Source: a phage. Taken from it: a stretch of 64,000 nucleotides of DNA. Below, piece by piece: positions 2,405-17,710 of the stretch. Position 1 is the first letter of the stretch; every line of letters begins with the position of its first letter. Location: sequence record PZ026127.1. One strand, given 5' to 3'. The notes under the pieces were generated by a model. That model was not told the DNA's origin. It did not search any database and worked only from the letters and a program-made list of their open reading frames with translations. A program made the position numbers and the translations under genes.

Positions 2405-2464
2405 GCAATACCAATTTATTAAAAATAGTGTATAATGTACCTACATTCACTTGAGGAACAGATA

Positions 2465-4138
2465 ATGAAAAAGGTTGTTATTTTAGGCGCGGGTCTTGGC
2501 TCACGGTTGTATCCAATTACCAACGAAATCCCGAAGGTACTGGTTAACTACAAACAACATACTGTATTAAAACATTTGTATGATTTGTATAGTAATCAAT
2601 CAGATGAAATTATTCTGGTTATTCACAGCAAATTTAACGACCTCGTTAAAGGCTATATTAAATCCATTAACATGATTAATAGTGATAAGCCTAAATTCAC
2701 TATTCGTAACGTTGATGTTGCCAATGGTTCGGCTCATGCTATCGATTGCATTGCCGAAGATATCATTGGGCACAATGTCTTGTTTAACTGGTGTGATATT
2801 ATTCCTGAAGGTCATAAAGTTGAGTGGGATAACGACTACTGTTATACCTATGGGACTGACTGTCGTTTTACATTTGAAGAACCGTACTTGCGTGAAATTG
2901 GTACCGGTGGTGGCGTAGTTGGCTTGTATCAGGTGGCTAATTGGACAGGTTTCGACCGTTCTAATTATGGTGAAGACCTTGCTGACAACCTGGATTCAAT
3001 GGTCCATTTGACTGAACGTAAGTTAGACTTTGTAGTTGATGTTGGTGACAAACTGAAACTGGCTAAGGCCCATGAAGATTCTGAAATTAACCGTGAATTT
3101 AATAAATTAGAGTTCACTGAGAATCTAGCTATTAAAGTACCTACAAACGAATTAGGTAAAGAAATCCAATCTAAAGAAATCAATTGGTACAATTCTATTG
3201 ATTCTGAATTCGTTCCTAGCATTGTAGACTTTGCTCCAGGTGAATTCATTAAAATGGAACGTATCTTTGGTCGAACCATGGCAGATGCCTACCGGTTTAT
3301 GTCTAAAGAAACTAAAGTCCTAATGGTTTATAAGGTTATTAGTGCATTACGTTCGTTCGGTGGAACTATCGATAATCCATCTGATGAGCAATGGTATTCT
3401 GATGTTAAGAAAGAAGTATTGGACAAGGTCCTTATTCGTAATGCTTCTATCGCCGGATTGATTGAAGGCTTTGCTCCACAGGGCATTACCCATGTTAACG
3501 ACTTTAAGGTAGGCGACCCTGAAAAACTTCTTCGCCATGCACTAGAAATTCTGTCTGAACATAAAGAACCGTACCAACTTATTCATGGCGACCCGCACTA
3601 CAGTAATATTATGTTGTCGGACGAAGGTGATATTAAAATCATCGACCCACGTGGTTATTTTGGTAATAGTTCTAAAGGCCCTGCGATTTATGATGAAGCT
3701 AAGGTGCTTTATTCTATCGATGGTTATGACAAATTTAACTCTGACCCTCTATGGGGTGGCTTAACTCGTAACGGAACTCGTGTATTCGTTGATATTGAAA
3801 AGGTTATGCCTTTAGATGATATTCCAATGTGTACATTTAAGCACAAGCTCTGGATTGCTGTTATCTGGATGGCATTGGCAGGTTACTTTAAAAATAACCC
3901 TCTGAAAGCTCTGGGTGCTTATTACAACGGTTTGTACCAACTGAGTGTGCTGCTGAAGCGACATCCTCGTAAGCGTAAGCTTATCACAGGTGAATTCGTT
4001 GATGAAGTTCGCGACCCTATCACGGCTCAAATTATCACTCGTTGTCCTGATAAGTGGGTTTTGCTTGACCAAGAAACTGGTGTAAAATATAAACCTACAG
4101 GTTCTACTGAACTCCACAAACAATGGAAGAAAATTTAA
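2465..4138 (+). CDS. bifunctional nucleotidyltransferase / kinase-like phosphotransferase (N-terminal sugar-1-P or phospho-alcohol nucleotidyltransferase domain, C-terminal APH/choline-kinase-like domain)
   Basis: N-terminus ILGAGLGSRLYPIT...PKVLV matches the G-x-G-[ST]-R-x-x-P-x-T nucleotidyltransferase signature; C-terminal HGDPHYSNIM...IKIIDPRG matches the catalytic loop of aminoglycoside/choline/anomeric-sugar kinases. Start set at ATG 2465 after GAGGAA; the track ATG at 2435 lies inside a TGTATAAT -10 box. Confidence 0.7.
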   Translation: MKKVVILGAGLGSRLYPITNEIPKVLVNYKQHTVLKHLYDLYSNQSDEIILVIHSKFNDLVKGYIKSINMINSDKPKFTIRNVDVANGSAHAIDCIAEDIIGHNVLFNWCDIIPEGHKVEWDNDYCYTYGTDCRFTFEEPYLREIGTGGGVVGLYQVANWTGFDRSNYGEDLADNLDSMVHLTERKLDFVVDVGDKLKLAKAHEDSEINREFNKLEFTENLAIKVPTNELGKEIQSKEINWYNSIDSEFVPSIVDFAPGEFIKMERIFGRTMADAYRFMSKETKVLMVYKVISALRSFGGTIDNPSDEQWYSDVKKEVLDKVLIRNASIAGLIEGFAPQGITHVNDFKVGDPEKLLRHALEILSEHKEPYQLIHGDPHYSNIMLSDEGDIKIIDPRGYFGNSSKGPAIYDEAKVLYSIDGYDKFNSDPLWGGLTRNGTRVFVDIEKVMPLDDIPMCTFKHKLWIAVIWMALAGYFKNNPLKALGAYYNGLYQLSVLLKRHPRKRKLITGEFVDEVRDPITAQIITRCPDKWVLLDQETGVKYKPTGSTELHKQWKKI

Positions 4139-4521
4139 TGTCACATCGAGTAGAAAATAAGCCTCATTTATGTTTTGACATCGATAACACAATCACGATT
4201 TGGAACCATGACCGTGATTATGAAAACTTTAAACCGGACACCGAAATGGTGTCCATGATTAATAAGCTTTATGATGAAGGATGCGAGATTACCTTGTTCA
4301 CTGCCCGTGGTATGACTTCATGCGGTCCAGGTCGAATCTTGGTTGAAGTAGTTCCTGCATTGGTTAAGAATCTTGAAAAGATTGGATTGAAATATCATAA
4401 TCTGCTTACACATAAGCCGAGTTATACTTTTATCATCGATGACCGAGCAATCCGTCCTGACCACTTTAAAGAAATGGTTCGTGAAGGAACTCTTGAAACC
4501 TATAAGGCATATCATCCGTGA
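4138..4521 (+). CDS. HAD-superfamily phosphatase-like protein
   Basis: Motif I FDIDNTIT (DxDxT), motif II TLFTAR, motif IV IIDDR; start ATG overlaps upstream stop (TAATG). Confidence 0.6.
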   Translation: MSHRVENKPHLCFDIDNTITIWNHDRDYENFKPDTEMVSMINKLYDEGCEITLFTARGMTSCGPGRILVEVVPALVKNLEKIGLKYHNLLTHKPSYTFIIDDRAIRPDHFKEMVREGTLETYKAYHP

Positions 4522-5054
4522 AACCAAAAATCATTGTTATCGACGGCCCGGATAATTCCGGGAAGTCTACTTTAATTGAATCGCTTTTATCTGATAAGAA
4601 ATATCGTCTTATCGATTTCCCTAAAAAGATTAATGGTAAGTGCATTTCGATAGGGACTGATAATGACAAGGCTTTAGTCGAGACGTTGTATAAGTTTTTA
4701 GACCCTAATTTTGTCTACATCTTAGACCGTGGATATCCTAGTAATATTGTTTACTCAGGATTCCTTCGTGGTGAAATGGACCCCTATGTAGAACTGGAAG
4801 ATTGGAAAGGGTTTAAATCTGAATTCAATATTATTGAGGTTATTTTAACCCGTAATCCACTGGATAAAGACTTTGAAGATGACCTTATTAAATTAACCAA
4901 AGATGAGTTCAACCTAACTATCCGGCAATATGAAACATGTTTTGAAAACGTGTTTAAAATCTTAAATCACGACGGCCATAATAACTTGCTTAACGTCGAT
5001 ATGGTAGAATTAAAACGTCTGAATGAATATATTGAAAATAAGGTGAATAAATGA
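4518..5054 (+). CDS. P-loop nucleotide kinase, thymidylate-kinase-like
   Basis: Walker A IVIDGPDNSGKST and TMK-like DRGYPSNIVYS motif; GTG start overlapping upstream stop. Confidence 0.6.
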   Translation: MKPKIIVIDGPDNSGKSTLIESLLSDKKYRLIDFPKKINGKCISIGTDNDKALVETLYKFLDPNFVYILDRGYPSNIVYSGFLRGEMDPYVELEDWKGFKSEFNIIEVILTRNPLDKDFEDDLIKLTKDEFNLTIRQYETCFENVFKILNHDGHNNLLNVDMVELKRLNEYIENKVNK

Positions 5055-5749
5055 AACACATTACCGCTGTTAGTTTTGAAAACGCGTTTAAGCAAATGAA
5101 CGAAGAAATCCTGGAAGCTCCACAGTTTGCAGTTGATTCTCGTATCGGCCGTTGTTATGAAATTGGTTCTGCTTCGGTAGAAGTACTGGATGCAAGCACC
5201 TATAAATTCACCGACCCTCGTATTAATCGTATCAACTATGATTATGCCGAATCTTTCTGGAAGTTTATGATTTCTGGTGGTACTGACGCCGCCGAAGCAT
5301 TTAAGGAATACCCTAATGTTGCTAAGTTCATTGATAAGCCGAAAAGTGACGTATTGCCTGCAAACTTCAACACTTTCTATGGACCTAGAATTGTGGCCCA
5401 ACTCCCAGCCTTACTTAAAGAGCTTAAAGAGAAGCCTAACTCAAGACGAGTTGTGTTCCAAATTCTCCAAGAACAAGACCAAGCCCTCCTTGATTCTGAC
5501 GAATCCTTAGAATATCCATGTACCGATTCGGTGACATATTATATTCGTGATGGACGTCTGTATGCACACACTCATATGCGTTCACAGAACTGTGCTATTG
5601 TTATGCAGCTGGATTTCTATCTGCAGGGTAAACTGATGGCCTTTATTGCTGAACAGTGTGGTGTTGGTCTGGGTACGTATTCCCATACTATGGTTAGTGC
5701 ACACGTATTTGAACGTGATTTTGACTACGTTCGAGGATTCCTGAAATGA
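5051..5749 (+). CDS. 42: dCMP hydroxymethylase (thymidylate-synthase fold)
   Basis: 232 aa; motif CTDSVTYYIRDGRLYAHTHMRSQN resembles T4 gp42; position between imm region and uvsX. Confidence 0.85.
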   Translation: MKHITAVSFENAFKQMNEEILEAPQFAVDSRIGRCYEIGSASVEVLDASTYKFTDPRINRINYDYAESFWKFMISGGTDAAEAFKEYPNVAKFIDKPKSDVLPANFNTFYGPRIVAQLPALLKELKEKPNSRRVVFQILQEQDQALLDSDESLEYPCTDSVTYYIRDGRLYAHTHMRSQNCAIVMQLDFYLQGKLMAFIAEQCGVGLGTYSHTMVSAHVFERDFDYVRGFLK

Positions 5750-7889: not shown

Positions 7890-8211
7890 TTTATCTGATT
7901 TAGATAATTTCGTTAAAGATACCGAAGAGGGTCCTAGTGACCCTCGTTATTATGAGAAATCATTAGATATAATCCGTAAGTCAATGGGATCGGTTAAGCA
8001 GGAAATTATGCTTACTTTACCCGATGGCACTGCTCACATCGTTTATGTGATGAATATTGTTATTGAGAAAGATGGAAAAGTGTCGGTTGATTTCGGAACA
8101 CCTTCCGAAGACCGAAAAGAAGAGCTGGCGCTTCATGTAGAAAAATGTGTTACAATGCAAATACAAGAAGAACTGGATAAAATTAAATCTAAGAGGTGGT
8201 GGAAGTGGTAG
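7882..8211 (+). CDS. 40: gp40-like protein (head vertex assembly helper)
   Basis: 109 aa ORF between uvsX and 41, as T4 gene 40. Confidence 0.6.
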   Translation: MTDLSDLDNFVKDTEEGPSDPRYYEKSLDIIRKSMGSVKQEIMLTLPDGTAHIVYVMNIVIEKDGKVSVDFGTPSEDRKEELALHVEKCVTMQIQEELDKIKSKRWWKW

Positions 8212-9635
8212 AAACTATTTTGGCTCAACTGCTAGGCAATAGTGATTATTTCACTAAGGTCTGGCCTTATATGAATGATTCTTATTTTGACCAGGGTCCT
8301 GCAAAGACCCTTTTCAAAGAAATTAAAAAACATGTCAATGAATATAATGCAGTGCCTTCTAAGAACGCATTGAGCATTGCATTAGATAACAGTACGCTTT
8401 CAGAAGTTGAACACCAAGGCGCTAAAGAGCTTTTAAGTTCGCTGAATGCCGGACCTGAAGACCAAGAATGGTTGGTTAAAGAGACGGAGAAATACGTTCA
8501 GAAAGCAGCGATGTATAATGCAACTTCAAAAATCATTGAAATCCAAACTAATGCCGACCTTCCGGTTGAGCAACAAAATAGAAAACTTCCAGGTATTGGT
8601 GCTATTCCGGATATCATGCGTGATGCATTATCGATTTGTTTCGATTCTGAATTAGGTCATGACTGGATGGATGACTATGAAGAACGATTCAAAAGTTATT
8701 CCGATAAAGCACGTAAGGTTCCATTCCGTCTTAATATTCTGAATAAGATTACCAAGGGTGGTGCTGAGTTTGGTACTGAAAACGTATTGTTGGCAGGAAC
8801 AAACGTAGGTAAGTCTCTTGGTCTTTGTTCATTGGCTGCTGATTACCTTCAATCCGGTTACGATGTTCTTTATATCTCCATGGAGATGGCAGAGGAAGTA
8901 TGTGCTAAGCGTATCGATGCCAACCTTCTGGACGTGTCGCTGGATGATATCGATGATGGTCACGTCTCGTGGCCTGAATATAAAGCTAAGATGGATAAAT
9001 GGCGTTCAACTGCTACCTTGGGTCGTTTAAAGATTAAACAGTACCCTACCGGTGGCGCTAATGCCGATACATTCCGTGCATTATTAAACGAATACAAGCT
9101 CAAACAAAACTTTGTCCCACAGGTCGTTATCGTTGACTACTTGGCTATCTGTGCATCGTCTCGTACGAAAGTTTTCTCTGAAAACAGTTACGGATTGATT
9201 AAGATGGTTGCTGAAGAACTACGTGGACTTGCAGTAGAGAAGAAATTACTGTTGTGGACTGCAGCCCAGACTACTCGTGGTGCGAACGTTGCAGCCGAAA
9301 TCGATATGGCCGATATTGCTGAATCCTTTGGTATTGCACATACTGCAGACTTCATGTTGGGTGTGGTCGAGACAGAAGAGTTCGCTCAGATGGGTATGCA
9401 GATGGTTAAGCAGCTTAAATCTCGTTATGGCGATAAGAGCTACTACAACAAATTTAAGATTGGCGTTAAGAAAGGAAATCAACGTTGGTACGAAGTTGAA
9501 GATGATTCCAACCCAGGCCCAGTGAACACTGTTCGTGAGGCTACAGGTGAGATGAATCGCCAGGCCGAGGTCAATCGACAGACGCGTGTTAATAGAAGTG
9601 ATTTGGACGATTTAGCAGCATCTATCAAATTTTAA
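8205..9635 (+). CDS. 41: gp41 replicative DNA helicase (DnaB-like)
   Basis: Matches T4 gp41 from the MVE(T/I)IL N-terminus onwards; Walker A GTNVGKS; GTG start. Confidence 0.95.
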   Translation: MVETILAQLLGNSDYFTKVWPYMNDSYFDQGPAKTLFKEIKKHVNEYNAVPSKNALSIALDNSTLSEVEHQGAKELLSSLNAGPEDQEWLVKETEKYVQKAAMYNATSKIIEIQTNADLPVEQQNRKLPGIGAIPDIMRDALSICFDSELGHDWMDDYEERFKSYSDKARKVPFRLNILNKITKGGAEFGTENVLLAGTNVGKSLGLCSLAADYLQSGYDVLYISMEMAEEVCAKRIDANLLDVSLDDIDDGHVSWPEYKAKMDKWRSTATLGRLKIKQYPTGGANADTFRALLNEYKLKQNFVPQVVIVDYLAICASSRTKVFSENSYGLIKMVAEELRGLAVEKKLLLWTAAQTTRGANVAAEIDMADIAESFGIAHTADFMLGVVETEEFAQMGMQMVKQLKSRYGDKSYYNKFKIGVKKGNQRWYEVEDDSNPGPVNTVREATGEMNRQAEVNRQTRVNRSDLDDLAASIKF

Positions 9636-9656
9636 GGAGCTTCGGCTCCTTTTTTG
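9636..9656 (+). terminator. intrinsic terminator (GGAGC-UUCG-GCUCC hairpin plus U tract)
   Basis: ggagcttcggctcc followed by ttttttgtttt directly after gene 41 stop. Confidence 0.7.
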
Positions 9657-9665
9657 TTTTTAAGG

Positions 9666-9694
9666 GTTTACATCTCCTGTAGGCGTGATACTAT
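9666..9694 (+). promoter_or_regulatory. early promoter (GTTTAC ... TGaTACTAT)
   Basis: -35 GTTTAC, 17 nt spacer, extended -10, followed by CCTATCAAC box. Confidence 0.5.
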
Positions 9695-9718
9695 AGACCT
9701 ATCAACTTGGAGAACAAA

Positions 9719-10036
9719 ATGAAAACCATCGACTGTAAAGCAGAATATAAAGTGTATTACCATGGAAGTTGTAGTGTCGCTAATATCGGTAATATGCTTT
9801 GTCCTCCTGAGGAAACAGGAGTTCTGTCTGAAACCGGTCGTAAGAAAAACCTAAATCGTGTGTTCTTTACTGAAGATATCGGTTTGGCTAAGATTTATGC
9901 TGGACGTGCAGCTCGTTCAGTGGGAGGAGAACCCCGTCTTTATCGTGTAATTGCTCCGGTAGATGTGGTTTGTTTAAATGATACTAAAGGCGCTACAGTT
10001 TATCATGCTGAATGGGCCTTCTGTGAGGAAATCTAA
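9719..10036 (+). CDS. small ADP-ribosyltransferase-like protein (Arr-like candidate)
   Basis: 105 aa; YYHGS near N-terminus, later RVFFTED and RLYRVIAP segments line up by eye with the H-G-T / Y / acidic pattern of rifampin ADP-ribosyltransferase-type enzymes. Confidence 0.4.
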   Translation: MKTIDCKAEYKVYYHGSCSVANIGNMLCPPEETGVLSETGRKKNLNRVFFTEDIGLAKIYAGRAARSVGGEPRLYRVIAPVDVVCLNDTKGATVYHAEWAFCEEI

Positions 10037-10231
10037 ATGTCTGAATCAATTAAAGTAAAATTTGTCGGCCATTTCGCCAACGGTGATACCGCTACCAAAG
10101 AAGCTTCAGTGCGTGAAAACGATATTGTGTGGGTGGCTACCCAATTCGCTGAAGTCAATAGTATTCTAGTCAAGGCCTATGTCGACGACGTAGAAGTTTA
10201 TGAACATGATGCTCGCATTGAGGAAATCTAA
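10037..10231 (+). CDS. hypothetical small early protein
   Basis: 64 aa ORF immediately after upstream stop, early-gene orientation. Confidence 0.5.
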   Translation: MSESIKVKFVGHFANGDTATKEASVRENDIVWVATQFAEVNSILVKAYVDDVEVYEHDARIEEI

Positions 10232-10372
10232 ATGGAAGAATTTGAATGTGTAGTATGTGGTTGTTCAGTCTATGAAGACCAAGCGGTATTTGATGCTTGG
10301 GATAACGCAACCTGTTTAGACTGTGACAGCGAATTCGAAGAAATTGCTCATAAACATGAAGGTGAGGAATAA
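10232..10372 (+). CDS. hypothetical zinc-ribbon peptide
   Basis: 46 aa with CVVCGC ... CLDCD pair of Cys motifs; tightly packed between neighbours. Confidence 0.4.
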   Translation: MEEFECVVCGCSVYEDQAVFDAWDNATCLDCDSEFEEIAHKHEGEE

Positions 10373-10612
10373 ATGAATATTACCTTAATGAAACCAACTC
10401 CTAGTTCTTTTTGGAATAAATCTTTTGGTAAGCATAACATGTTTATCCAACGTACCGTAAACAACTGGGAACTAGTTCTTTCAGCGGGCCACAACGATTA
10501 TGAACAAGAATATGTAGAGTTCTTCGAATTTCCTGTGAAGCCCACTAAGCGTCAGATTCGTCAGACAAAACGTAAATTCCGTAAAATTTATTTGGAAGAT
10601 TCATTAAAATAA
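10373..10612 (+). CDS. hypothetical small early protein
   Basis: 79 aa ORF with GAGGAA RBS. Confidence 0.5.
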   Translation: MNITLMKPTPSSFWNKSFGKHNMFIQRTVNNWELVLSAGHNDYEQEYVEFFEFPVKPTKRQIRQTKRKFRKIYLEDSLK

Positions 10613-10613
10613 A

Positions 10614-10642
10614 GTTTACAACGGTCTATGGTAGTGATACTA
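10614..10642 (+). promoter_or_regulatory. early promoter
   Basis: GTTTAC at 10614, TGATACTAT extended -10, then CCTATCAAC box. Confidence 0.5.
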
Positions 10643-10671
10643 TGGACCTATCAACTACCGAGGAGAACATT

Positions 10672-10965
10672 ATGAAAAAGTTATTAATCGCAGCAATCCT
10701 TACAGTAGCATCATGTGGCACAGCTCCAGTTACGGCTGGATTGGATAAAGACCTTTGTGAATGGTCTATGACTGCAGACCAAGAATCGGTTGAACATCAG
10801 ATTTATGCCGATATCATGAACATCACTAAACGCGACCGCCCTGATATGGCTAAAGAAGTGTCAGACCAATTAGCTTCAGGTGGTGTTATGCAATATAACT
10901 GGAATTTGTATTGTGATGCCAATTTCGATAACAAAAATATCGTTAAAGAGGTGACAGGTGAATAA
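10672..10965 (+). CDS. secreted/lipoprotein-like small protein (possible spackle-type periplasmic protein)
   Basis: 97 aa from ATG 10672 after GAGGAGAA; signal peptide MKKLLIAAILTVASCG; lies in the 41-61 interval where T4 has sp. Confidence 0.5.
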   Translation: MKKLLIAAILTVASCGTAPVTAGLDKDLCEWSMTADQESVEHQIYADIMNITKRDRPDMAKEVSDQLASGGVMQYNWNLYCDANFDNKNIVKEVTGE

Positions 10966-11398
10966 GATTAACAGAAATTTAGTTATCAAAAAACTTCGTT
11001 GTAAAAATCCAAATGCACAAGCATACAGGATGTTTTGGAGCGACGACCACCAATACCTGGGTTATTTTCTTGTTGATAGCGATGATCGAATTACAATGGC
11101 TCATAAACTTCTTAACAGAGAATTAAACCATTGGCAAGAACTTATCGCGGTGAGGTCTAAATTATTTTCGTGCAATACAATGCACCAATTGGTTTATTTT
11201 TTCGCTGAAGGTATTCCTGACAAGGTTGAGTTTGATGGATTCGAATTTAAAGACATCCTCCCAGACAACGAATTGAACGACCGCGTTAATATGGACATCC
11301 CTAGCAAGTATATCAAAAACAGTCTGTTGAAAATTCTGGAAGCTCCGGTTTATTCAATAGATGACCAGATTTTTAATGCCTTTATGAATCGAGGTTAA
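10958..11398 (+). CDS. hypothetical protein
   Basis: 146 aa ORF, GTG start overlapping upstream gene. Confidence 0.5.
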   Translation: MNKINRNLVIKKLRCKNPNAQAYRMFWSDDHQYLGYFLVDSDDRITMAHKLLNRELNHWQELIAVRSKLFSCNTMHQLVYFFAEGIPDKVEFDGFEFKDILPDNELNDRVNMDIPSKYIKNSLLKILEAPVYSIDDQIFNAFMNRG

Positions 11399-11399
11399 T

Positions 11400-11621
11400 A
11401 TGTTTGTCTTAACTCAATTCTCTAAAGCGGTGTATAGTTACTCTTGTCAGTGGGAAGTCTTTATCGATTCTCCTTCACCTAAGTACGGTGTTTTTGGTCG
11501 AGTAACTACTCAAGCTTATGTTGCACGGCCAACTAAGCGCCAGCTTCGTAAACTTAAAAAGGCCCATCGCCAACTGATTGAGAGAAGGGAACAATATGAC
11601 TGCAATGTGTACGGGCTCTAA
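11400..11621 (+). CDS. hypothetical small basic protein
   Basis: 73 aa ORF directly after upstream stop. Confidence 0.45.
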   Translation: MFVLTQFSKAVYSYSCQWEVFIDSPSPKYGVFGRVTTQAYVARPTKRQLRKLKKAHRQLIERREQYDCNVYGL

Positions 11622-11787
11622 GATTTCTGTATTCGAGTTATTCGAAGAATATGAAATCATATCAAAAGACCAAGAAGCTATCCATATTATTGCCGGTGAT
11701 GGGGTGACTTGGATTATTCCACTTTACCACGAAGATACGTACGAAGTCACTGATGCAAATGGTGATAAAGCTATTTTCGTAATATAA
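11596..11787 (+). CDS. hypothetical small protein
   Basis: 63 aa from ATG 11596 preceded by GAGAAGGGAA. Confidence 0.4.
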   Translation: MTAMCTGSKISVFELFEEYEIISKDQEAIHIIAGDGVTWIIPLYHEDTYEVTDANGDKAIFVI

Positions 11788-11803
11788 ATAAGGCCAGGAG
11801 CCT

Positions 11804-11965
11804 ATGAAATCTTTTAAAGAAGTTATGAACGAAGATATGGTCGCAGGCGATGCAGGTGGTAACCCATCTAATATTGCCTCCGGAACTACCTCAGGCGCGG
11901 TCGTCAACAAAGGGCCTGAACAAATCCCATCTAAAAAGCGTAAAGAAAAATCCGAAAACGAATGA
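11804..11965 (+). CDS. hypothetical small basic peptide
   Basis: 53 aa, RBS AGGAG, Gly/Ser-rich with KKRKEK tail. Confidence 0.35.
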   Translation: MKSFKEVMNEDMVAGDAGGNPSNIASGTTSGAVVNKGPEQIPSKKRKEKSENE

Positions 11966-12003: not shown

Positions 12004-13032
12004 ATGTCATATGTCGATAGAGAATTTGCTGTACGTGCCTTGAATTACCAACCTAAATTCAGACAAGTAACTGGTAGTGATTTTAAATTAAACTGTCGTT
12101 GTCGTGTATGTGGCGACTCCCTAAAAGATGAGAACAAAGCTCGTTTTTGGGCCTATCCGGCCAATGACGGCTCCGTAATGCTGCACTGTTTTAACTGTGA
12201 CTATTCAGCAGGAATTAAGAAGTATCTATACGAATATGAGCCTGATTTATATCGAGAATATATTCTTGAGAAACATAAAGAGCAATCGTTCGGGAGACAA
12301 GCTGCACCTAAGGTGGAGATATCAGAAAAGATTAAAGCCAAGATGCCTGTCATCGAAAAGCTTAATTTCTGTGAACGTCTGGATAGAATGCCAAAGGACC
12401 ATCCTATTATCAAATATGTGACGTTACGTTGCATTCCTGAAAACAAATGGAACCGGCTGTGGTTTACTAAAGAATGGCCGGCATTGGTGAACTCTGTCAA
12501 TCCAGGGACCTATTCTAAAGAAATGCCTGAGCCTCGTTTGGTTATTCCAATTTTCAATAAGAATAAACAAATTGAAAGTTTTCAGGGTCGAGCCTTACGT
12601 AAAGATGCTCCACAAAAATATATTACAATAAAAGCTCATGACCAAGCTACAAAAATATATGGAATGGATACAGTTGACGAACGTCAGTTGGTGTGGGTAA
12701 TGGAAGGCCCTATTGACTCTTTGTTTGTTCCGAATGCAATAGCAATTACTGGCGGGTCGTTGGACTTGGCTATGGTTCCATGTAAAGAAACTCGTGCCTG
12801 GGTAATGGACAATGAACCCCGCCATCCTGACACAATTAAGCGTATGCAACGATTAGTTGATGCTGGCGAAAGGGTTCTATTCTGGGACAAGGCTCCATGG
12901 CCTTCTAAAGATATAAATGATATGATTATGAAAGATAAAGCTGATATAAATGATGTACTGGCATATATGAAAGCTAATATAGCCCAAGGTTTAATGGCAA
13001 AAATGAGACTTTCAAAATATTCTAAAATTTAG
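12004..13032 (+). CDS. 61: DNA primase gp61
   Basis: 342 aa; N-terminal zinc-binding CRCRVCGD ... HCFNCD and overall match to T4 primase. Confidence 0.9.
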   Translation: MSYVDREFAVRALNYQPKFRQVTGSDFKLNCRCRVCGDSLKDENKARFWAYPANDGSVMLHCFNCDYSAGIKKYLYEYEPDLYREYILEKHKEQSFGRQAAPKVEISEKIKAKMPVIEKLNFCERLDRMPKDHPIIKYVTLRCIPENKWNRLWFTKEWPALVNSVNPGTYSKEMPEPRLVIPIFNKNKQIESFQGRALRKDAPQKYITIKAHDQATKIYGMDTVDERQLVWVMEGPIDSLFVPNAIAITGGSLDLAMVPCKETRAWVMDNEPRHPDTIKRMQRLVDAGERVLFWDKAPWPSKDINDMIMKDKADINDVLAYMKANIAQGLMAKMRLSKYSKI

Positions 13033-16471: not shown

Positions 16472-17041
16472 ATGAACATCGAACAAAAATGTCTTTATCA
16501 AGACCGAATCAATTCCAAATTCTCAAAACACGAACAGAATCTTTTAGAAAAATGTCTGGATGCTAAAAAAGACCCTAACTTCCATTACGACCTTGACAAA
16601 CTGGTTCGCAAGCATGTTACTTCAGCGGTTCCAGTAGAGTTGTATCGTGGGATTACCACCAGAGAACTTGAGCAATTAGAGCTCCTTTCAGTAGGTTGTC
16701 AATGGTCTCCTGGTCGAGTTACTTCTTTTAGTACACAATACTCTCAGGCTCGTCAATTCGCAGGGGCATGGGAATATGGAACCAAAACCATTTTAAGTCT
16801 CAGGAATGCACCGTTCATTTTCGACTACTACAATCATGCTATCGACCTTGTTCTTGCAGGGAATGTGGATGAGCTTGAAATAGATGAAACCCGTATTGAC
16901 CTCTATGATATGGTTGAAACTGAATGTGAGTTCATGGTCTCCAGCCTATCAAGATTTGAGATTGTTGAAATCGAAACCGTCAAAAGGGACCCGTACGAAA
17001 TCGAGTACAAAACAATTCATTTAAAAATGTTGGATTTTTAG
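16472..17041 (+). CDS. ADP-ribosyltransferase, ModA/ModB family (R-S-E class)
   Basis: 189 aa; LYRG (Arg), SFSTQ (STS) and ECEF (E-x-E) motifs in the expected order. Confidence 0.7.
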   Translation: MNIEQKCLYQDRINSKFSKHEQNLLEKCLDAKKDPNFHYDLDKLVRKHVTSAVPVELYRGITTRELEQLELLSVGCQWSPGRVTSFSTQYSQARQFAGAWEYGTKTILSLRNAPFIFDYYNHAIDLVLAGNVDELEIDETRIDLYDMVETECEFMVSSLSRFEIVEIETVKRDPYEIEYKTIHLKMLDF

Positions 17042-17095: not shown

Positions 17096-17710
17096 ATGTT
17101 ATATCCAAGCCATAAATTAGCAGAATTTATCAACAATGCCAAATGCGATGATTTCCGTGAGAATACTCAGATAGAAATTGATGAGGTGTATTCTGATTTA
17201 GAACAGAGTACCCTCTGGCAGTGTATGGAAAATAAACCGGATACTATCCAGGAAACTCTGAACAAAATTATTCGTAAGAACCTGACTTCTGTAGTGCCTG
17301 ACAAGTTGTACCGTGGGATTTCTAAGAAGACTATGGCATATCTTGAATCTACTATGTGTGTAGGTGCCGTAATTGAATTCGACCGAGTAATGAGCTTCTC
17401 AAAAGATTTCAATGTAGCTCGTAACTTCGCATCTTATAACTTCTACGGCACATTTAATATCTTTTGTATTAATGATGCACCATTTGTGTACAATTATCAG
17501 GAAGAAATCTTTAAAATGTTATGTGCCGCGCCCCCTGAAGAGTTCCCAGGTGCATTTCCTGAATCTACCCGTGTAGCAAACTTACAATTAATCAATGATG
17601 AAGATGAGATGATGTTCCCTGCGGGAACTACGCTGCGCGTAGACTCTATTGAGAGAAATCCTAAATGGAATAATTACACCATTTGGAATCTTTCCGTTCT
17701 TTCTTACTGA
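17096..17710 (+). CDS. ADP-ribosyltransferase, ModA/ModB family paralog
   Basis: 204 aa; LYRG, MSFSKD and EDEMMFPAG motifs; tandem with preceding paralog. Confidence 0.7.
   Translation: MLYPSHKLAEFINNAKCDDFRENTQIEIDEVYSDLEQSTLWQCMENKPDTIQETLNKIIRKNLTSVVPDKLYRGISKKTMAYLESTMCVGAVIEFDRVMSFSKDFNVARNFASYNFYGTFNIFCINDAPFVYNYQEEIFKMLCAAPPEEFPGAFPESTRVANLQLINDEDEMMFPAGTTLRVDSIERNPKWNNYTIWNLSVLSY

Follow-up and report, generated by a model that had tools for sequence, protein, structure and literature searches.

A small ADP-ribosyltransferase-fold protein, Arr-like in fold and predicted NAD pocket, is encoded ahead of dmd in a Dhakavirus genome

The 64,000-nucleotide stretch of sequence record PZ026127.1 analyzed here, hereafter called the window, stems, as judged by sequence identity, from the genome of a Dhakavirus, that is, a T4-like coliphage of the Straboviridae (Tevenvirinae). 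The region of interest shows 99.7% identity to the Enterobacteria phage vB_EcoM_IME540, itself a Dhakavirus, and 96–99% identity to WG01, QL01, Bp7, and IME08. Downstream of the gene 41 helicase it contains an open reading frame (ORF) for a protein of 105 amino acids (positions 9719–10036), the product of which is very probably an NAD-binding protein with the fold of ADP-ribosyltransferases (ARTs). By sequence comparison, its fold and NAD pocket resemble those of the rifampin ADP-ribosyltransferase Arr, but it lacks the features by which a rifampin Arr is defined. On balance, we favor the interpretation that it is an early mini-ART whose modification of a host component serves takeover or counter-defense. 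The original prediction had described a 105-residue Arr-like ADP-ribosyltransferase candidate at this position, just after the helicase gene. The ORF is present as described, and the call is correct though not new; the ART family was already described computationally in 2022 (Iyer et al. 2022). What is added here is that the protein is not a rifampin Arr, that the conserved pocket and the apparently missing acid have been mapped, and that the link to dmd is lineage-specific.

The gene is real and under purifying selection. Its ORF runs from ATG 9719 to the stop codon TAA at 10034–10036 and begins 84 nt past the stop codon of gp41 (9635). A TTG at 9707 was considered as an upstream start and rejected, because the spacing to the GGAG element and the database annotations, including the start annotated for IME540, favor ATG 9719. 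The phrog_2110 profile matches the protein over its full length (positions 1–105 of 105, E = 1.5e-60), and 122 homologues were found in the protein database at E <= 0.01. A tblastn search retrieved orthologues in 610 phage records, the hosts being Escherichia (216 records), Klebsiella (116), Acinetobacter (68), Aeromonas (62), Enterobacter (29), Cronobacter (14), and Vibrio (14), besides other hosts. The GenBank records of WG01, IME08, and dhaeg encode a protein that is 100% identical to that of the window, and the orthologue of RB69, ORF040c, shares 88.6% of its amino acids with it at a dN/dS ratio of 0.11. When orthologues from Klebsiella and Aeromonas phages are compared, synonymous sites are saturated, while protein identity still amounts to 65–71%. 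In PHROGs, phrog_2110 is listed as of unknown function, and a few GenBank records name the protein "putative ADP-ribosyl transferase" or "rifampin ADP-ribosyl transferase."

The kinship with Arr becomes apparent at the level of the family. Taken singly, the window protein matched the Pfam family Arr-ms with E = 0.026 and 15.1 bits, below the cutoff of 25 bits, and the NCBIfam model rifampin_ARR (NF033144) with E = 0.07 and 12.9 bits, the cutoff being 130; neither phmmer nor a profile of the close family retrieved any match among the PDB sequences. Arr-ms was matched by 5 of 41 close homologues (best E = 2.6e-6). Exhaustive searching with a profile brought up 247 representative relatives, and among the multidomain proteins in this set, 31 of 54 matched Arr-ms at E <= 0.001 (best 1.8e-9); three of the four relatives with listed Arr-ms scores exceeded the cutoff with 27.5, 29.4, and 31.5 bits. 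When a profile of the wide family (A2) was run against 177,635 distinct PDB sequences, Arr chains were the sole matches (E = 0.0019 for 2HW2/9IAF and 0.013 for Arr-2, 9IBA). Profile–profile alignment with hhalign yielded a probability of 94.5% (E = 7.5e-8) for the ART family versus Arr and of 96.6% (E = 4.8e-10) for 99 family domains versus Arr-2 plus Arr-ms; the Arr-2 sequence used was checked against 9IBA, from which it differs by one K/R exchange. The link to Arr is thus solid at the family level, resting as it does on the family profile, on hhalign, and on the matches of the multidomain relatives, and a likeness that had been proposed by eye is borne out by significant profile matches.

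Predicted structure points in the same direction. An AlphaFold2 model calculated from 41 homologues reached a mean predicted local distance difference test (pLDDT) score of 85.3 and a predicted template modeling (pTM) score of 0.77. In a Foldseek search of the PDB, Arr ranked at the top (probability 1.00, template modeling score 0.57), followed by six KptA/Tpt1 entries, with E-values of just 0.01–0.3. In BFVD, the best non-orthologous match was a siphovirus "Rifampin ADP-ribosyl transferase [Siphoviridae]" (E = 1.2e-7). Two structure-search programs independently ranked ART-fold proteins first, and structure comparison recognized the split beta-sheet NAD+-binding core of the ART superfamily. 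The Arr-like assignment of the window protein is therefore supported at the superfamily and clade level. That the resemblance to Arr is a chance motif match in a small phage protein of other descent might be read from the weak single-sequence E-values and the blank PDB searches with phmmer and the close-family profile; we rejected this explanation as very improbable in view of the profile–profile probability of 96.6%, the transitive Pfam matches above cutoff, the ranking in both structure-search programs, and the coincidence of conserved positions with known NAD-contact residues of Arr.

A YYHGS motif near the N-terminus, which had caught the eye initially, corresponds to Y13-Y14-H15-G16-S17 (codons 9755–9769). 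Across the 99 family domains, H15 and G16 are invariant (99/99 each), and E38 (98/99), R41 (96/99), F49 (97/99, Y in 2/99), T51 (96/99), Y60 (98/99), A57, and the pair G69-G70 are nearly so; position 17 is T in 87 and S in 12 of the 99 domains. The HGT motif of Arr is therefore present as H15-G16-S17, and both the strand-1 histidine and the strand-2 aromatic residue of the ART superfamily are retained in H15 and F49, which align with H19 and Y49 of Arr. According to HMMER and hhalign, F49 corresponds to Y49, T51 to T51, Y60 to W59, and E38-x-G40-R41 to E40-x-G42-R43 of Arr-ms. The tyrosine at Arr position 49 is not kept: with phenylalanine in its place, the aromatic ring stays and the hydroxyl group is gone. 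An E-x-G-R motif is common to the window protein, Arr-ms (E40-A-G-R43), and Arr-2 (E-D-G-R), and E38-x-G-R41 is a candidate catalytic or NAD-phosphate-binding motif. In Arr, mutagenesis has shown H19, Y49, and D84 to be critical, D84 belongs to a DPN[V/L] motif with 100% conservation, and NAD+ binding has been proposed for a flexible loop between strands 1 and 3 (PMC6092378); the E38-x-G-R41-K-K-N loop of the phage protein, modeled with lower pLDDT, corresponds to this loop. D84 is thought to stabilize the oxocarbenium intermediate, and one wall of the cleft for rifampin is provided by the C-terminal helix alpha-2 (PMC8120803).

It is these latter features that the phage protein lacks. The local hhalign alignment ends at its residue 84, the DPN motif has no counterpart in the alignment, and in the 99 family domains no conserved acid was found by hhalign at the position of Arr D84 or of the canonical ART glutamate. 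The chain ends opposite residue 118 of Arr-2 (about residue 111 of Arr-ms), and Arr runs on for about 32 residues, so that the C-terminal helix lining the rifampin cleft is absent. Of the segments that had originally been lined up by eye with Arr, the H-G-S motif and a conserved aromatic position hold, whereas the acidic residue finds no support, the residue aligned with D84 being hydrophobic. We give next to no credence to a genuine rifampin- or rifamycin-inactivating Arr carried by the phage. Although Arr is the sole sequence-level relative with a solved structure and one Klebsiella phage record bears the name "rifampin ADP-ribosyl transferase," a rifampin resistance gene was rejected on the scores far below the NCBIfam and Pfam cutoffs, the absence of anything corresponding to D84, the catalytic residue, or to the DPN[VL] motif around it, and the loss of the cleft helix. 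The phage protein and Arr (Arr-ms 2HW2/9IAF; Arr-2 9IBA; PF12120) agree in H-G-[ST], E-x-G-R, the strand-2 aromatic residue, T51, the helix aromatic residue, and in being unusually small, single-domain proteins, but differ in length (105 versus 143–150 amino acids), in D84/DPN (with a loop five residues shorter), and in the C-terminal helix or strand that forms the rifampin cleft; moreover, Arr is a bacterial resistance gene and the phage protein belongs to a lytic phage with, judging from its promoter, early expression.

For the protein itself, we propose the following. It would be a minimal NAD+-binding ART-fold protein, essentially a bare catalytic core, from a clade of phage and polyvalent proteins whose sister group is formed by the rifampin ADP-ribosyltransferases. 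With early transcription driven by a promoter of its own, and as the first cistron of an operon that continues with dmd, an ORF of 46 codons, and a tifA-like gene, it would hold NAD+ as Arr does, by H15-G16-S17, F49/T51, and Y60. The invariant E38-x-G-R41-K-K-N loop would shut over the NAD+ pyrophosphate and/or position the acceptor, and ADP-ribose would then be moved to a host target soon after infection. A good nucleophile or a substrate-activated acceptor, e.g., a phosphate or a hydroxyl group of a small molecule or at the end of an RNA or DNA, would be favored because the acid position appears to be hydrophobic and because, among solved structures, Tpt1/KptA and Arr come closest in fold. 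The outcome would be host takeover or counter-defense, with a precedent in AcrIF11, a small ART that disables a defense complex. The parts of this proposal differ in strength. What we infer is that the protein uses NAD+, is catalytically competent, acts on the proposed class of acceptor, and has a role in counter-defense. An active transferase is the probable case; for a role in counter-defense or host takeover the chances appear evenly balanced; and a nucleic acid or small-molecule acceptor is put forward tentatively, as somewhat doubtful.

Several points weigh against this proposal, in addition to the low scores of the single sequence in Pfam and NCBIfam. The residues of the active site are assigned by sequence alignment. 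No conserved acid was seen at the position of D84 or of the canonical Glu; in the global hhalign alignment, L86 (M, L, or I in the T4-like clade) faces D84 of Arr, with a deletion of five residues. Acidic residues frequent in the T4-like clade, namely D82 (34/41), D88 (30/41), and E103 (39/41), are not conserved in the wider family. With no conserved acid in place, the protein could be a non-catalytic binder. The near-neutral isoelectric point of the T4-like clade is atypical of nucleic-acid-binding ARTs; since it lies at about 6.7–6.9 in this clade and at about 9.1 in the wider family, charge was discarded as an uninformative hint at nucleic acid binding (about 6.8 versus 9.1). The genomic position of the gene is not fixed, being a different one in Aeromonas, Klebsiella, RB43, and Acinetobacter phages, which limits guilt by association with the neighboring anti-defense genes to phages of the Mosigvirus and Dhakavirus type. 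Finally, a literature search retrieved no experimental study of RB69 ORF040c or of any phage Arr-like ART.

The apparent lack of the acid lends itself to the idea of a catalytically dead ART-fold binder, which might serve as a sponge or decoy, with NAD+ or an immune signal derived from ADP-ribose as its ligand, or might inhibit a host protein stoichiometrically. The residues of the NAD pocket are still nearly invariant, phage sponges for NAD-derived signals are known (Tad1/Tad2), and the neighbors Dmd and TifA are themselves stoichiometric toxin inhibitors. We nevertheless consider a dead binder quite unlikely: E38 and R41, both invariant residues of the active-site loop, have the look of catalytic or substrate-positioning residues more than of mere ligand contacts, and in multi-enzyme polyvalent proteins the domain sits beside other catalytic modules.

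How an enzyme might work without the acid is illustrated by Tpt1/KptA (9LD3, 8TFZ, 7KW9), to whose NAD+-binding lobe the phage protein is similar. At the canonical ART position, Tpt1 is without a catalytic Glu/Asp, a trait that the phage protein appears to share, and the RNA phosphate attacks NAD+ directly; in Arr, the acceptor is a hydroxyl group of a small molecule. On the other hand, there is no sequence-level match between the two in the PDB sequence searches, and the phage protein (105 versus about 180 amino acids) is devoid of the N-terminal RNA-binding lobe, which in Tpt1 carries most of the Arg-His-Arg-Arg catalytic tetrad. In cells, the product of Tpt1 is processed by enzymes of the 2H phosphoesterase and NUDIX kinds, and some relatives of the phage protein are fused to 2H phosphoesterase and NUDIX modules, recalling the Tpt1 pathway. 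A more specific version of our proposal would be an active, acid-less mini-ART, a stand-alone Tpt1/Arr core, that modifies a phosphate or hydroxyl of a non-protein acceptor, or else a host toxin, to neutralize bacterial defense, candidate acceptors being the ends of RNAs cut by defense RNases, tRNA or mRNA, or a nucleotide-type immune signal. This version is speculative and, in our judgment, unlikely; if true, it would mean a new enzymatic counter-defense mechanism at the head of a dmd/tifA operon in hundreds of T4-like phages.

The window contains two tandem Mod-like genes at 16472–17041 (189 amino acids) and 17096–17710 (204 amino acids), which match phrog_832, "RNA polymerase ADP-ribosylase," with E = 1e-37 and 1e-44, respectively, so that the protein studied here is indeed the third ART of the window, as originally proposed; in IME540, just the first of the Mod-like pair is annotated as an ADP-ribosylase. 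Alt, ModA, and ModB of T4 are likewise phage-encoded, and the Mod genes are likewise early, but Alt/Mod belong to the R-S-E clade, have about 190–200 residues, fall into phrog_832, show no sequence similarity to the window protein, and act on protein arginines or perform RNAylation. With modest confidence, we consider a protein-arginine target of this kind somewhat less likely than a non-protein or self-activating acceptor. The earlier suggestion that the target may be a small molecule or nucleic acid instead of RNA polymerase would fit the nearest structures. AcrIF11 (6KYF), an anti-CRISPR ART, is similarly small; however, it has no detectable sequence similarity to the phage protein, comes from another host and phage group, and modifies an asparagine of a protein within a CRISPR complex. 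For the window protein, there is no tie to CRISPR.

The wider family offers a further perspective. About one third of its representatives are domains within larger proteins of 190–3924 amino acids, often at the C-terminus, and polyvalent, portal, tape-measure, and primase proteins serve as hosts. Fusion partners comprise ART-PolyVal (8 proteins), NUDIX (3), DUF7178 (3), GNAT, Toprim/primase, a lambda-type portal plus 2H/Acb1-like phosphoesterase, a tape-measure domain, LPD23, CHAP, and ddrB-ParB. Polyvalent and virion-associated fusions of phages and conjugative elements are generally read as effectors delivered together with DNA (Iyer et al. 2022, PMC9503650). Among individual relatives, P0150 carries the mini-ART fused to a DNA primase/Toprim, to which P0161 adds GNAT; in P0186 the mini-ART is fused to a lambda-type portal followed by a 2H/Acb1-like phosphoesterase, and in P0151 to ART-PolyVal plus NUDIX. 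With their 2H and NUDIX partners, these fusions bring to mind the enzymes by which the ADP-ribose cyclic-phosphate product of Tpt1 is processed, which may be a functional hint or merely reflect the mix of polyvalent cargo.

Outside of phages the close clade is rare. A scan of 185,579 bacterial and archaeal species genomes with a profile of the close alignment yielded five loci, three of which look like phage contigs, while two reside in Patescibacteria. One of these two apparently cellular loci, in Candidatus Kaiserbacteria (OY969413.1, 3902–4348 of the extracted locus L016), encodes a homologue of 148 amino acids with 47% identity over the domain and adjoins an insertion-sequence (IS)-type transposase. 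No conserved ADP-ribose hydrolase, immunity, or antitoxin partner was found beside the distant stand-alone homologues on metagenomic phage contigs and at the Kaiserbacteria locus.

In the window, the ART gene and dmd directly abut (TAAATG), and in RB69 ORF040c precedes dmd with an overlap of 4 nt; abutting genes in the one phage and overlapping genes in the other suggest coupled expression. The region containing dmd, tifA (61.4), and adfA (61.2) has been termed a probable "anti-TA island," TA denoting toxin-antitoxin, the other genes of which are "attractive anti-toxin candidates," and TifA, the product of T4 gene 61.4, is an inhibitor of ToxN (Srikant, Guegler and Laub, eLife 2022, PMC9391042). 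This island lies between genes 41 and 61, and in Dhakavirus and Mosigvirus the ART gene is its promoter-proximal member. A pair named "p0068-family ART + Dmd" was described from phages of Escherichia, Shigella, and Salmonella by Iyer, Burroughs, Anantharaman and Aravind (2022, Viruses 14:1977, PMC9503650), who read it as toxin-antitoxin and speculated that the ART may modify RNA. By its verbal description, this pair is almost certainly the ART/dmd pair of the window; in our literature search, the name p0068 was found only in that publication. The p0068 family was placed in the H-Y-[EDQ] clade, whereas the third catalytic position of the window protein looks hydrophobic and its nearest folds are Arr and Tpt1.

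The ART could be the toxin of a phage-borne type II toxin-antitoxin pair with Dmd as the antitoxin. Apart from the fit of the locus to the published description and the tight gene arrangement in the window and RB69, the use of the domain as an effector module in polyvalent proteins speaks for such a pair, and the toxin-first order resembles rnlAB. The phyletic patterns tell otherwise. Dmd was detected by tblastn in 797 records, the listed host genera being mainly Escherichia, Shigella, Yersinia, Salmonella, and Citrobacter, a count that may overlook divergent copies of this short and fast-evolving protein; its distribution is largely independent of that of the ART with its 610 records, which makes an obligate toxin-antitoxin relation unlikely. 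A Tequatrovirus has dmd without the ART: the gene order is 41-dmd-61.4-sp-61.2-61.1-61, with 58 bp from gene 41 to dmd. Conversely, different genes follow the ART gene in phage 133, 44RR2.8t, RB43, and a Klebsiella Slopekvirus, and no Pfam Dmd match was obtained among these downstream neighbors. An addiction module would also be of little use to a virulent phage. The linkage of the ART gene with dmd is lineage-specific, which weakens the published idea, and we regard a toxin-antitoxin pair as decidedly improbable.

The distribution of the ART gene in T4-like phages is wide but patchy, and its neighbors vary accordingly. In Acinetobacter phage 133, it lies between 41 and 61.1 and is followed by an unrelated ORF of 157 codons; in Aeromonas phage 44RR2.8t, it is located between hoc and gene 24; and in RB43 and a Klebsiella Slopekvirus, srd and RNA ligase 2 lie downstream of it, the next gene encoding a small membrane protein. 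In RB43 (2456–5240 of extracted locus L005) and Klebsiella phage KLB21 (2501–5219 of L010), the ART gene heads a co-directional string ending with srd and rnlB. RNA ligase 2 (rnlB) lies about 1.4 kb downstream of the ART gene in Pseudotevenvirus and Slopekvirus, so that closeness to an RNA-repair enzyme recurs in these lineages without dmd.

The features of the window that surround the gene are compiled in Table 1. Promoter-like sites stem from a consensus scan, which is no proof of function. The terminator-like hairpin, which has a stem of seven pairs, four of them GC, and the tail TTTTGTTTTT, parts gene 41 from the small ART-dmd operon. A -35 element of the GTTTAC type is typical of T4 early promoters, and early expression of the ART gene is plausible from the upstream promoter-like sequence, which is of the sigma-70/T4-early type. 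With terminator- and promoter-like sites on its flanks, the segment comprising the ART gene, dmd, the 46-codon ORF, and the tifA-like ORF would form one short early transcription unit, as the consensus scans suggest.

Table 1. Features of the window around the ART gene, with active-site codons. Arr numbering refers to Arr-ms.
Feature	Position in the window	Strand	Remarks
uvsX	6717–7889		
gene 40	between uvsX and gene 41		
gene 41 helicase (gp41)	8196–9635		program-made ORF, GTG start 8196
intrinsic-terminator-like hairpin	9634–9661	+	AAGGAGC-TTCG-GCTCCTT plus T-run, right after gp41 stop
promoter-like site	9667–9694	+	TTTACA-16 nt-TACTAT, TG before -10 hexamer; 9/12 match
Shine–Dalgarno GGAG	9709–9712	+	6 nt upstream of ATG 9719
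mini-ART-fold protein	9719–10036	+	105 aa, 11.6 kDa, pI 6.7
H15-G16-S17 codons	9761–9769	+	end of strand 1; aligned with Arr H19-G20-T21 (NAD+ contact)
E38-T39-G40-R41 codons	9830–9841	+	flexible loop between strands 1 and 2; pLDDT 64–75
F49-F50-T51 codons	9863–9871	+	strand 2; F49 aligned with Arr Y49, nicotinamide-stacking aromatic
Y60 codon	9896–9898	+	helix, 11 residues past F49; aligned with Arr W59; second aromatic of ART Y-x10-Y-type pair
dmd	10037–10231	+	64 aa, inhibitor of RnlA/LsoA toxins; Pfam Dmd PF17587, E = 1.3e-15
46-aa ORF	10232–10372	+	two CxxC pairs, zinc-ribbon-like; phrog_13952, function unknown in PHROGs
gp61.4/TifA-like protein	10373–10612	+	79 aa, DUF7279; last gene before next promoter-like site
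second promoter-like site	10615–10643		TTTACA-17-TACTAT, upstream TG; near-identical to 9667–9694 site; just before spackle
spackle gene	10672–10965		
gene 61 primase	12004–13032		after further small ORFs

Some additional observations concern these neighbors. In database annotations, gp41 starts at an internal ATG (window position 8271, by offset to IME540), and the annotated helicase is 25 codons shorter than the program-made ORF. The island is seemingly divided into short early units with near-identical promoters. The product of the 46-codon ORF is acidic (MEEFECVVCGC...CLDCDSEFEE), and in RB69 and Tequatrovirus ACG-C40 this position is without a gene; located between dmd and the tifA-like gene, it may be a mini zinc-ribbon anti-defense candidate. 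Two gp61.4/TifA-like paralogues (10373–10612 and 11400–11621) share a basic cluster, PTKRQ(I/L)R followed by a K-rich stretch, and match phrog_2375, phrog_3272, and phrog_12748; the first additionally matches Pfam DUF7279. For the second, the IME540 annotation gives "nucleotidyltransferase," apparently in error. The presence of two divergent genes of the ToxN-inhibitor type may widen the anti-toxIN range. Between spackle and gene 61 (10958–11965), none of the ORFs of the window is as large as gp61.2/AdfA, which has about 208 amino acids in T4-type phages; this segment holds an ORF of 146 codons (122 from the annotated start; phrog_8539, function unknown in PHROGs), the second TifA-like ORF, an ORF of 69 codons, and gp61.1. 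The Dhakavirus of the window may thus be without the anti-DarT factor AdfA or have a substitute for it.

T4-like phages are the classic model of viral ADP-ribosylation, with Alt, ModA, and ModB as its agents. The protein described here would be a fourth, structurally different ART, and one that T4 itself is without. It is carried by more than 600 sequenced phages, the hosts of which include Escherichia, Klebsiella, Acinetobacter, and Aeromonas; many of these phages are candidates for phage therapy. The label "rifampin ADP-ribosyl transferase" risks flagging such therapeutic phages as resistance carriers, and the evidence argues against this function. In the window, the ART gene heads an operon of proven defense inhibitors, and its relatives are modules of proteins thought to be delivered together with DNA; because of this place in the operon and these effector-type relatives, the substrate of the protein could reveal new chemistry of counter-defense or takeover. 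It could also show what a minimal ART core is capable of without the canonical catalytic acid. For specialists, the protein would be a good experimental target rather than a surprise.

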